From: Escherichia coli
GTDB lineage: Bacteria; Pseudomonadota; Gammaproteobacteria; Enterobacterales; Enterobacteriaceae
Strand: one strand, 5' to 3'
DNA: 64,000 bases
Assembly: GCF_003334385.1 (NCBI RefSeq)
Contig: NZ_QOWN01000021.1
Below the pieces are notes generated by a model, which saw only the letters and a program-made list of their open reading frames with translations, was not told the origin of the DNA and searched no databases. The translations under genes were made by a program, and so were the position numbers. How positions within the stretch are numbered: the stretch's first letter is position 1; every line of letters begins with the position of its first letter. This document shows positions 3,224 to 15,613 of the stretch, piece after piece.

Positions 3224-3384
3224 TGTTTTATTCCTGCATTTTTGCCACGAATTGCAACTGTCGGGCATGGTCGTCATCAACACGACGCATCCCGCTACCG
3301 CGAAAACCTTTGATCCTGAAAGACACGCAGTGCAGTTGGTTAATTAATGTCCGCGCTTCCCACGGCGCGCCATTACGCTATTGC

Positions 3385-3420
3385 AAATGCAAATAGTTAT
3401 CAATAATATTATCAATATAT
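3385..3420. promoter_or_regulatory. Putative Fur box in fepA/fes divergent promoter region
   Basis: AT-rich gataat/attatc-like hexamer array (aatagttatcaataatattatcaatat) in the 242-bp fepA-fes spacer; the fes-fepA region is a known Fur-controlled bidirectional promoter. Confidence 0.5.
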
Positions 3421-3465
3421 TTCTGCAATCAATGAAAAATTGCACAGTAAACATGGGGTTATGGT

Positions 3466-4668
3466 GTGACGGCGTTAAAAGTAGGAAGTGAGAGCTGGTG
3501 GCAGTCGAAACATGGCCCGGAATGGCAGCGTCTGAATGACGAAATGTTTGAGGTCACTTTCTGGTGGCGTGATCCCCAAGGTTCTGAAGAATACTCGACG
3601 ATAAAGCGCGTATGGGTCTACATCACTGGTGTGACCGATCACCATCAGAACAGCCAGCCCCAGTCGATGCAGCGAATTGCAGGCACTAACGTCTGGCAGT
3701 GGACGACACAACTCAATGCCAACTGGCGCGGCAGCTACTGCTTTATTCCCACCGAACGCGATGACATTTTTTCTGTACCATCCCCCGATCGCCTCGAATT
3801 GCGCGAAGGCTGGCGAAAACTATTACCCCAGGCGATAGCCGATCCGCTGAACCTACAAAGCTGGAAAGGCGGGCGAGGGCACGCTGTTTCTGCACTCGAA
3901 ATGCCGCAAGCGCCTCTGCAACCGGGATGGGATTGTCCGCAAGCGCCAGAAATACCTGCCAAAGAAATTATCTGGAAAAGTGAACGGTTGAAAAAGTCAC
4001 GGCGTGTATGGATTTTTACCACCGGCGATGCAACAGCAGAAGAACGCCCGCTGGCAGTTTTGCTCGATGGCGAATTTTGGGCGCAAAGTATGCCCGTCTG
4101 GCCAGTGCTGACTTCGCTGACCCATCGTCAGCAACTTCCTCCCGCCGTGTATGTGTTGATCGACGCTATCGACACCACGCACCGCGCCCACGAACTGCCG
4201 TGTAATGCGGATTTCTGGCTCGCAGTACAGCAAGAGTTATTACCCCTGGTGAAAGCTATTGCCCCTTTTAGCGATCGTGCCGATCGCACCGTGGTTGCCG
4301 GGCAGAGTTTTGGTGGGCTTTCCGCGCTGTATGCCGGACTGCACTGGCCTGAACGCTTTGGCTGTGTATTAAGCCAGTCAGGATCGTACTGGTGGCCGCA
4401 TCGGGGCGGGCAGCAAGAGGGCGTGTTACTTGAAAAGCTAAAAGCTGGTGAAGTTAGCGCCGAAGGTCTGCGCATTGTGCTGGAAGCGGGTATTCGCGAG
4501 CCGATGATCATGCGGGCCAATCAGGCGCTGTATGCGCAATTACACCCCATAAAAGAATCCATTTTCTGGCGTCAGGTTGACGGCGGACATGATGCGCTTT
4601 GTTGGCGCGGTGGCTTGATGCAGGGGCTAATCGACCTCTGGCAACCACTTTTCCATGACAGGAGTTGA
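3466..4668 (+). CDS. fes: Enterochelin (ferric enterobactin) esterase Fes
   Basis: Translation MTALKVGSESWWQSKHGPEWQ... with GQSFGG esterase motif; 400 aa from GTG at 3466, or 374 aa if ATG at 3544 is used. Confidence 0.9.
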   Translation: MTALKVGSESWWQSKHGPEWQRLNDEMFEVTFWWRDPQGSEEYSTIKRVWVYITGVTDHHQNSQPQSMQRIAGTNVWQWTTQLNANWRGSYCFIPTERDDIFSVPSPDRLELREGWRKLLPQAIADPLNLQSWKGGRGHAVSALEMPQAPLQPGWDCPQAPEIPAKEIIWKSERLKKSRRVWIFTTGDATAEERPLAVLLDGEFWAQSMPVWPVLTSLTHRQQLPPAVYVLIDAIDTTHRAHELPCNADFWLAVQQELLPLVKAIAPFSDRADRTVVAGQSFGGLSALYAGLHWPERFGCVLSQSGSYWWPHRGGQQEGVLLEKLKAGEVSAEGLRIVLEAGIREPMIMRANQALYAQLHPIKESIFWRQVDGGHDALCWRGGLMQGLIDLWQPLFHDRS

Positions 4669-4670
4669 AT

Positions 4671-4889
4671 ATGGCATTCAGTAATCCCTTCGATGATCCG
4701 CAGGGAGCGTTTTACATATTGCGCAATGCGCAGGGGCAATTCAGTCTGTGGCCGCAACAATGCGTCTTACCGGCAGGCTGGGACATTGTGTGTCAGCCGC
4801 AGTCACAGGCGTCCTGCCAGCAGTGGCTGGAAGCCCACTGGCGTACTCTGACACCGACGAATTTTACCCAGTTGCAGGAGGCACAATGA
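4671..4889 (+). CDS. ybdZ: MbtH-like protein YbdZ (enterobactin synthase accessory protein)
   Basis: MAFSNPFDDPQGAFYILRNAQGQFSLWP... 72 aa with MbtH-like tryptophans; AGGAG upstream; stop overlaps entF ATG (ATGA at 4886..4889). Confidence 0.9.
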   Translation: MAFSNPFDDPQGAFYILRNAQGQFSLWPQQCVLPAGWDIVCQPQSQASCQQWLEAHWRTLTPTNFTQLQEAQ

Positions 4890-14282: not shown

Positions 14283-15239
14283 TTAAAACAGCGCCTTAAG
14301 CCTATCCAGCACTTGCATGGCGCTGTAGTAATCCAGACGGAACGTCTCGGTTCCCAGCGCATAAACCTGCTTGTTTTGTACTGCAGGCAGGTGCGCGAGC
14401 AGCGGATTAGCATAAATAGCATCGGCATCTTTCTGATCACCGGCGAACAGGAATAGTGACTCGCCATTTAACCCTGCAGCCAGATTTTCCCCACCAAGCT
14501 GAATGATGTCATGGCGTTTACCCTGACTTTGGCTGGCATTTAACCCTGCGGGTAACTTCGCCAGCGTAAAGCCGAGTTGTTCCAGCATCTGCCCTTGTGC
14601 TGATTCTGGCGTCCAGAGATTGGCACTGTGTGCAGCGGCAGTATAGACAATGGCAGTGACCGGCTGCGGCGGTAATTTGATTTGCTCTTTCGCCGCCGCC
14701 AGTTGCTTATCAAACTGCGCAATCCGCTCTGCCGCTTGTTTCTCATGCCCGGTAATTTCGCCAAGTTGCGTTAACAGCGACTGCCAGCTTTTGTCGTCGT
14801 AATTGATGATTAATGTCGGGGCGATGGTGGAAAGCTGATCATACAGTGCCAGCGCCGAATCCCCGCCGGTTGCGCTAATTAAAATCAGATCCGGCATTTG
14901 CGCGGCAACGGCTTCGGCGCTCGGTTCGCCGATATAGAGCCGTTGCAGTTTGCGTTCTTTCGCCACCTTGCTCCACTGGCGTAAAAAGCCCTGGTCATCC
15001 GCGACGCGGTTATTCGGCGTGGTCGCGCCGCTGGCGATCACCGGAGCATCAATCGCCAGCAGTGAGCCGGTCAGGGTGACGCTGGTGGAAACAATACGCT
15101 GCGGCTGGCTTTCCAGTGTATGTGTGCCACGGCTGTCAGTAATCTGACGCGGCCAGTCAGCGGCCTGAACTGCGGCTATTCCTGAAAGCAAAAGTCCTGT
15201 TAATAGAAGGGCGTTGCGGTAGAGCGGGGCGAGTCTCAC
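14283..15239 (-). CDS. fepB: Ferric enterobactin periplasmic binding protein FepB
   Basis: 318-aa [29 protein letters not shown] (signal peptide) ... matching FepB. Confidence 0.93.
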
Positions 15240-15304
15240 AAATCAGCTTCCTGTTATTAATAAGGTTAAGGGCGTAATGACAAATTCGACAAAGCGCACA
15301 ATCC

Positions 15305-15410
15305 GTCCCCTCGCCCCTTTGGGGAGAGGGTTAGGGTGAGGGGAACAGCCAGCACTGGTGCGAACATTAACCCTCACCCCAGCCCTCACCCTGGAAGGGA
15401 GAGGGGGCAG
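15305..15410. repeat. GC-rich boxC-like intergenic repeat, two partial inverted copies, within the fepB leader
   Basis: gtcccctcgcccctttggggagagggttagggtgagggg and downstream ccctcaccccagccctcaccctggaagggagagggggcag; reverse complement recurs at 22775..22820. Confidence 0.6.
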
Positions 15411-15565
15411 AACGGCGCAGGACATCACATTGCGCTTATGCGAATCCATCAATAATGCTTCTCATTTTCATTGTAACCACAACCAGATGCAACCCCGAGT
15501 TGCAGATTGCGTTACCTCAAGAGTTGACATAGTGCGCGTTTGCTTTTAGGTTAGCGACCGAAAAT

Positions 15566-15590
15566 ATAAATGATAATCATTATTAAAGCC
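15566..15590. promoter_or_regulatory. Fur box in fepB/entC divergent promoter
   Basis: aaatgataatcattattaaagc, near-consensus Fur box about 30 bp upstream of entC ATG. Confidence 0.7.
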
Positions 15591-15613
15591 TTTATCATTT
15601 TGTGGAGGATGAT

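Follow-up and report, generated by a model that had tools for sequence, protein, structure and literature searches.

Control of the enterobactin (ent/fep/fes) cluster in Escherichia coli through the iron-responsive repressor Fur is already established and has been mapped experimentally for decades. The closest described systems are the fepA-fes operator, known from its deoxyribonuclease I (DNase I) footprint (Hunt, 1994), the fepDGC-entS (ybdA) bidirectional region (Christoffersen et al., 2001; Lavrrar, Christoffersen and McIntosh, 2002), and the fepB-entC system (Elkins and Earhart, 1989; Brickman, Ozenberger and McIntosh, 1990; Pakarian and Pawelek, 2016). This article compares with these systems the enterobactin cluster carried by a 64,000-nucleotide stretch of E. 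coli DNA (contig NZ_QOWN01000021.1, assembly GCF_003334385.1), here called the window. An initial annotation of the window had proposed that Fur boxes in three divergent promoter regions, fepA/fes, fepD/entS, and fepB/entC, coordinate the genes for enterobactin uptake, synthesis, and export, and this proposal is borne out by matrix scanning, conservation, published footprints, chromatin immunoprecipitation with exonuclease digestion (ChIP-exo), and RNA sequencing (RNA-seq) of fur deletion strains. The sequence matches and their significance, the conservation across genera, and the mapping onto footprints and ChIP-exo peaks are results of the present analysis; physical Fur binding and Fur-dependent expression are taken from the literature on identical sequence. 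With a probability of roughly 95%, these sites are the classical Fur operators of the cluster, four operators distributed over three divergent regions, with fepE lacking a Fur box of its own.

The window is part of the E. coli chromosome, and its 13-kb enterobactin stretch, which many complete E. coli genomes match at 100% identity, was found in all of the 5426 complete E. coli genomes searched. There are no differences from K-12 MG1655 in the fepA/fes (3224-3465), entF/fepE (8768-8982), fepD/entS (12919-13028), and fepB/entC (15240-15613) intergenic regions, so that results published for K-12 transfer to the window nucleotide by nucleotide (window position is NC_000913.3 minus 609271, or NC_000913.2 and W3110 minus 608494).

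Fur operators of the three divergent regions

Candidate sites were scored with a 19-bp Fur matrix trained on 15 Fur-regulated MG1655 promoters, all outside the enterobactin cluster (fhuA, fiu, fhuE, tonB, yncE, cirA, mntH, nrdH, exbB, nfeF, ryhB, sodA, fhuF, sufA, and ydiE), and the chance level was taken from 200 dinucleotide shuffles. The trained matrix recovers the classical consensus GATAATGATAATCATTATC with an information content of 14.1 bits, and the training sites, each scored on a leave-one-out basis, fall between 6.8 and 21.2; the fhuE, mntH, and tonB sites are weak and possibly wrong (6.8-8.3) but were retained to avoid tuning, which leaves the matrix slightly less sharp. Five positions in the 64 kb score at least 16 bits, against 0.17 expected, and all lie in fepD/entS and fepB/entC. 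A comparison with the 19-bp consensus itself leads to the same two regions: a single site in the window has three or fewer mismatches (12931-12949 in fepD/entS; 0.01 expected), and all sites with four or fewer fall within fepD/entS (12931, 12937) or fepB/entC (15451, 15566). A 19-bp match, or else at least three contiguous GATAAT-like hexamers, is present above chance at each of the four operators. All four are situated 12-230 bp from start codons, within the DNA between divergent genes.

Conservation was assessed in 80 loci obtained from one scan of 100,044 species genomes anchored on EntS, with representatives of Escherichia, Salmonella, Citrobacter, Enterobacter, Klebsiella, Raoultella, Kosakonia, Kluyvera, Leclercia, Lelliottia, Erwinia, Siccibacter, and other genera. 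Gene order is retained across these loci, and in all three divergent regions nearly invariant blocks of the orthologous promoters coincide with the Fur boxes, while the flanks diverge. This pattern bears on one alternative, that the Fur-like sequences reflect mere AT-rich promoter composition and have no specific operator function. Intergenic promoter DNA is indeed AT-rich, the window holds 73 positions of at least 8 bits (31.5 in shuffles), many of which fall in DNA that is no Fur target, and the fepA/fes region scores at chance level for a 64-kb scan on the 19-bp matrix. Composition would nevertheless yield scores of 18-21.5 bits only 0.02 times per window, it does not account for boxes that are nearly invariant across 7-14 genera while adjoining AT-rich DNA diverges, and it is already contradicted by footprints, ChIP-exo, and fur-deletion derepression published for the exact sequence, all of which make it vanishingly improbable.

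In the fepD/entS operator, the sequence GATAATGAAATTAATTATC at 12931-12949 scores 18.4 bits with three mismatches to the consensus, and a second register at 12937-12955 on the minus strand scores 16.7 bits. The best box of this region reaches at least 16.7 bits in 79 of 79 species (median 20.4), and a conserved block, beginning with the Fur box, occupies 12930-12980. A DNase I footprint at 621394-621462, corresponding to window positions 12900-12968, is broader than the core and extends into the first fepD codons (Chen, 2007, Table 3; PMC2189734), and Fur ChIP-exo peaks occur at 12943-12971 in MG1655 and 12941-12953 in W3110 (Gao, 2023; PMC10164565). The predicted site was also confirmed by gel shift (Chen, 2007), and the overlapping registers in 6-bp phase agree with the three Fur dimers reported for the entS site (Lavrrar and McIntosh, 2003, cited in Chen, 2007). 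The sequence is identical to that of the described bidirectional region and shows no differences from it. To call this site a shared operator is correct, the exact positions of its two promoters being putative; -35 and -10 hexamers assigned there by eye were unconvincing. Its ranking as the best match of the three regions stands by consensus mismatches, since no other site has as few as three, but not by the matrix, on which the entC box is higher (21.5 against 18.4 bits).

In the fepB/entC region there are two operators rather than one. The box at 15566-15584, on the entC side, has the highest matrix score of the window (21.5 bits), with registers shifted by 6 bp to either side at 17.7 (15572-15590, minus strand) and 14.2 bits; the box at 15451-15469 on the minus strand, on the fepB side, has the second highest (19.5 bits). 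DNase I footprints cover each separately, that of fepB at 623939-623969 (window 15445-15475) and that of entC at 624054-624102 (window 15560-15608; Brickman, 1990, cited in Chen, 2007, Table 3), and so do ChIP-exo peaks, at 15440-15478 (MG1655) and 15448-15460 (W3110) for fepB and at 15549-15593 (MG1655) and 15562-15574 (W3110) for entC (Gao, 2023). Pakarian and Pawelek (2016; PMC5020551), who used this region as an iron-controlled bidirectional promoter, describe 'two non-overlapping Fur boxes', of which box 1, AAAATGAGAAGCATTATT, overlaps the fepB -10/-35 elements and box 2, ATAAATGATAATCATTAT, lies downstream of the entC +1/-10/-35. The sequence is identical to that of this known system, and its two Fur boxes are the two top matrix matches found here. 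The fepB box core TAATGCTTCTCATTTTCAT and the entC-side AAATGATAATCATTATT are invariant in the seven species aligned; across species the median score of the top box is 21.5 bits, and 66 of 79 carry another box of at least 12 bits that does not overlap it. In the W3110 ChIP-exo data a gene tag, Y75_RS23290, is listed with fepB; the current W3110 annotation is empty between fepB and entC.

The initial annotation had placed a single operator, at 15566-15590, in this region. That box is real, but the account was incomplete in that the independent fepB box was missed, and a shared operator is the wrong description for two back-to-back promoters with one operator each. Taken literally, the annotation would supply one operator per divergent region, 15566-15590 serving both fepB and entC, together with a weak box conferring iron control on fepE. 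Although all three boxes that it listed are real, such an arrangement is very unlikely, given two protected regions with centers about 115 bp apart, each with a high-scoring box and both conserved across genera; the evidence from fepE, discussed below, points the same way.

The fepA/fes operator behaves differently under the 19-bp model. The initial annotation had placed a box at 3385-3420, and the matrix finds there only 12.0 bits at 3389-3407 on the minus strand and 11.7 bits at 3383-3401 on the plus strand, a level that about three positions per 64 kb reach by chance, although within the 242-bp fepA/fes region itself a match of about 12 bits is expected by chance only roughly 0.01 times; the best consensus match has six mismatches. 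Since the 19-bp score is this low, the status of the operator rests on a hexamer model, conservation, and published experiments. When contiguous GATAAT/ATTATC hexamers are scored, the array GTTATC, AATAAT, ATTATC at 3396-3413 matches at 16 of 18 positions, and the array of this region is the top three-, four-, and five-hexamer array of the window. None of 200 shuffles reaches its three- and four-hexamer scores, one of 200 reaches the five-hexamer score, and the site is clearly non-random. The hexamers run reverse-forward-reverse and lack the spacer found in the classical forward-forward-x-reverse box. A cluster-summed matrix score was tried as another means of rescuing the site and failed (13.0, rank 9), unlike the hexamer-array model. 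Across 44 of 44 species the best matrix score is at least 12.0 bits, and the block TACGCTATTGCAAATGCAAATAGTTATCAATAATATTATCAA (3375-3415) is invariant bar a few positions in 14 genera, with flanks about 50% identical. The published footprint, at 611868-611915 of NC_000913.2 (Hunt, 1994, cited in Chen, 2007, Table 3), corresponds to window positions 3374-3421 and encloses both the hexamer array and the span of the initial annotation, and Fur ChIP-exo peaks lie at 3398-3410 (W3110) and 3417-3429 (MG1655; Gao, 2023). The sequence is identical to that of the published operator and the site does not differ; what shifts is its description, in that a contiguous hexamer array fits far better than the 19-bp forward-forward-x-reverse consensus.

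A promoter-like sequence on the minus strand, TTGATT-18-TATTAT, places its -10 element at 3408-3403, within the hexamer array, and is read as the fepA -10; the sequence suggests that the fes -10 overlaps it on the other strand, both at putative positions. Work by Hunt in 1994 reportedly described fepA and fes promoters that overlap one another, together with just one Fur site. For fepA/fes, as for fepD/entS, the term shared operator is correct.

Published binding and expression data cover the whole cluster. Each of the four DNase I footprints encloses a predicted box, and MG1655 and W3110 ChIP-exo peaks, mapped from Dataset 2 of Gao (2023), lie within about 20 bp of every box, so that Fur occupancy, which the initial annotation had named as a check, is documented by both methods in all three divergent regions; the MG1655 peaks are those of the MG1655 sheet, flagged there as common with Seo (2014). 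In the ChIP-exo tables of nine strains, fepA, fepD, entS, fepB, and entC each appear 9-10 times, and the nine-strain core Fur regulon lists fepA, fepB, fepC, fepD, fepG, entC, entE, and entS (Gao, 2023). In RNA-seq of an MG1655 fur deletion, log2 increases range from 5.3 to 6.6 for fepA-entD, fes-entF, and entCEBAH (fepA 6.6, fes 5.4, entF 5.4, entC 6.0) and are about 2.5-2.7 for fepDGC, 2.7 for entS, and 2.6 for fepB, compared with only 0.66 for the neighboring cstA (Gao, 2023).

Several observations weigh against this interpretation. The 19-bp score of fepA/fes is, as noted, at a level reached by chance, and the size of derepression is not tracked by matrix score, the region with the weakest score being the one with the strongest derepression. 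A position-weight-matrix threshold, which the initial annotation had named as a refuting test, would wrongly reject fepA/fes in spite of its footprint, ChIP-exo peaks, and derepression. A simple sigma-70 scan recovered neither the fepB nor the entC promoter and returned only pseudo-promoters derived from the Fur boxes, so their positions are taken from the literature. Footprint coordinates (Hunt, 1994; Brickman, 1990; Christoffersen, 2001; Lavrrar, 2002) are second-hand, by way of Table 3 of Chen (2007). Finally, three MG1655 ChIP-exo peaks have no Fur motif (P12, P16, and P19 of Gao, 2023): 3234-3267, just upstream of the fepA start codon; 15311-15336, inside the repeat TMECO no. 7 described below; and 15757-15788, inside entC. 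These may be shoulders or structure-related exonuclease stops.

The mechanism is ordinary Fur repression: when iron is sufficient, dimers of Fe2+-Fur occupy arrays of GATAAT-like hexamers that lie over or abut sigma-70 promoters and thereby block transcription. When iron is low, Fur leaves and six units are derepressed together, namely fepA-entD, fes-ybdZ-entF(-fepE), fepDGC, entS, fepB, and entCEBAH. A single operator (3374-3421) serves the overlapping fepA and fes promoters, and another (core 12931-12955) those of fepD and entS; at fepB/entC, box 1 (15451-15469) is situated over the fepB promoter and box 2 (15566-15584) just downstream of the entC start site.

The region upstream of fepE

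The initial annotation had also placed a weak Fur-like box upstream of fepE, at 8913-8926, and this claim finds no support. The palindrome GATAATTATC lies at 8908-8917, about 5 nt to the left; no register of it scores above 7.1 bits in the matrix, a value at chance level, and only one hexamer fits in any register (GATAAT at 8908-8913). fepE is absent from the ChIP-exo tables of nine strains (Gao, 2023). The palindrome is specific to E. coli, by virtue of its A, and other genera read the non-palindromic GATAATTCT, so that Fur occupancy and conservation as a Fur box are both lacking for this candidate.

Expression of fepE is nonetheless Fur-dependent, with log2 increases of 3.3 in MG1655 and 5.8 in W3110 fur deletions, and this derepression, like the GATAAT hexamer, is what a fepE box under the literal form of the annotation would predict. 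In the MG1655 fur deletion, however, fepE reaches only about 7 expression units where entF has about 900, or about 1% (Gao, 2023), and it lies behind a terminator-like hairpin with a T-run directly after entF, the hairpin being kept in other genera. The drop of about 100-fold from entF to fepE fits such a hairpin with read-through. Most simply, then, fepE has no Fur box of its own, and its weak Fur-dependence would result from read-through past the entF hairpin.

The motif itself is kept as TTCrGATAATTCT in 11 fepE-carrying species, in surroundings that are 43% identical, and is likely to be part of the promoter of fepE or a site for another regulator rather than a Fur box. A more specific version holds that fepE has a non-Fur promoter of its own, in which TTCrGATAATTCT would be the -10 element or a regulator site and the Fur-dependence would be indirect or due to read-through. 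The conservation of the motif favors it, as does a promoter-like match, TTTACA-16-AATTAT, that overlaps the motif at 8889-8916; such matches are, however, no commoner than in shuffles (3 found, 1.5 expected), and the chances of this version appear evenly balanced. It is compatible with read-through past the hairpin and with four Fur operators elsewhere in the cluster, and would refine the part of that explanation that concerns fepE. In Salmonella, wzz(fepE) is reported to be under PmrA control.

Gene layout and other features of the window

According to the annotation of one identical genome, the gene order is entD-fepA, fes-ybdZ-entF-fepE, fepCGD, entS, fepB, and entCEBAH, with a change of strand between successive groups. 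The coordinates of genes, operators, and other features are collected in Table 1.

Table 1. Features of the enterobactin region and further Fur-matrix matches in the window. Gene coordinates are from the annotation of an identical genome, shifted by 1 to window numbering.
Feature	Position	Strand	Remarks
fepA/fes Fur operator	3374-3421		common to the divergent fepA-entD and fes-ybdZ-entF promoters; footprint, hexamer array, conservation, ChIP-exo
fepD/entS Fur operator core	12931-12955		two overlapping 19-bp boxes 6 bp apart; common to the fepDGC and entS promoters
fepB Fur operator (Fur box 1)	15451-15469	-	GAAAATGAGAAGCATTATT; described as overlapping the fepB promoter; footprint, ChIP-exo
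entC Fur operator (Fur box 2)	15560-15590	+	core ATAAATGATAATCATTATT at 15566-15584; described as downstream of the entC promoter and start site
Terminator-like hairpin and T-run after entF	8783-8825 (hairpin 8783-8815)	+	13-bp stem, 7-nt loop, then TTTATTTGTT
186-bp insertion in the fepB 5' leader	15266-15451		two inverted BoxC/PIT/TMECO repeats, between Fur box 1 and the fepB start codon
TMECO no. 7	15308-15343	+	
TMECO no. 8	15370-15405	-	
entD	188-808	-	
fepA	983-3223	-	
fes	3466-4668		
ybdZ	between fes and entF		
entF	end at 8767		
fepE	8983-10116		
fepC/G/D	10113-12918	-	
entS	13029-14279		
fepB	14283-15239	-	
entC	15614-16789		
Fur-matrix match, 13-15.6 bits	44193-44211		coding, inside dpiB
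Fur-matrix match, 13-15.6 bits	33838-33856		coding, inside ybdR
Fur-matrix match, 13-15.6 bits	37172-37190		coding, inside citT
Fur-matrix match, 13-15.6 bits	32570-32653 (32576)		start of uspG

Further matrix matches of 13-15.6 bits were considered as additional Fur sites and rejected, as each lies within coding DNA or at its margin and lacks an MG1655 ChIP-exo peak; between entC and ybeQ, MG1655 has zero Fur ChIP-exo peaks (Gao, 2023). The matches in dpiB, ybdR, citT, and uspG are probably due to chance.

Rfam matches were observed at four places: ES036 (CssrF) small RNA in the fepA/entD spacer (867-908, minus strand; 40.5 bits against a gathering score of 37.6), STnc70 between dsbG and ahpC (29436-29529, plus strand), the rnk leader (34742-34850, minus strand), and a cspA-type thermoregulator 5' untranslated region at cspE (47836-48278, plus strand). 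Among the loci used for conservation, FepD matches in tblastn begin at residue 31 in most genera outside Escherichia and Citrobacter (loci L022-L098), and in those genera the position of the fepD start codon and its distance to the Fur box are conserved; with matches beginning at residue 31 despite a conserved start, FepD diverges much faster over its first 30 residues than over its remaining length, and much faster there than the adjacent operator does. One further locus, CACSKA010000002.1 (L057), is labeled Chryseobacterium sp. 18061 and carries a typical enterobacterial fepCGD-entS-fepB-entCE block whose EntS shares 81% identity with the E. coli protein; mislabeling or contamination of the assembly is probable.

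The BoxC insertion in the fepB leader

The fepB/entC spacer is 374 bp in E. coli compared with about 188 bp in other genera, and the extra 186 bp (about 15266-15451) form a GC-rich palindrome in the 5' leader of fepB. Its two inverted repeats are exact sequence matches to TMECO no. 7 and no. 8 of MG1655 (Holder et al., 2015, Nucleic Acids Research, Table 1). Of 5426 complete E. coli genomes, 2755 carry the insertion, K-12 among them, as does the window; it is precisely absent from the remainder, for example from strain 222 (NZ_CP020516.1). In an alignment of the fepB/entC region, it is also absent in E. albertii, Salmonella, Citrobacter, and Enterobacter. The BoxC element is a repeat, with a median of 14 locations in each genome. 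As in the fepB leader, loci of the BoxC/PIT/TMECO repeats are described as strain-variable (Hoyne and Maher, 2002; Holder et al., 2015), but Holder et al. (2015) mention fepB and entC zero times, and a tie of the element to the fepB leader or to the edge of Fur box 1 is described in none of the sources examined. What concerns the fepB leader is the only part of the present findings for which that literature holds no description.

With the insertion, the fepB leader lengthens from roughly 35 nt to roughly 220 nt and gains a strong hairpin, and the leader RNA folds at -98.8 kcal/mol (z = -5.0). The insertion also supplies the promoter-distal edge of Fur box 1, its outer three bases, which changes GTTAATGC to CAATAATGC and raises the score from 16.5 to 19.5 bits. 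It is conceivable, though rather doubtful, that E. coli lineages differ as a result in how fepB is expressed or in how tightly Fur represses it. As a separate observation, the motif-less MG1655 ChIP-exo peak at 15311-15336 falls within the insertion.

Fur control of the enterobactin cluster is textbook metal-dependent repression at bidirectional promoters, and its confirmation adds nothing new. The comparison does carry consequences for how such regions are read. The experimentally proven fepA/fes operator would be overlooked if a 19-bp Fur matrix were applied with a genome-wide cut-off, and searches for Fur sites should therefore take in hexamer arrays or conservation as well. Nor should a divergent intergenic region be presumed to have a single operator, since fepB/entC has two. 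If the insertion does alter fepB expression or its repression, the K-12 'fepB-entC paradigm' would represent a derived rather than an ancestral allele, and the BoxC insertion would provide a small, testable example of a well-studied regulatory region that a repeat element has changed in only some strains of one species.

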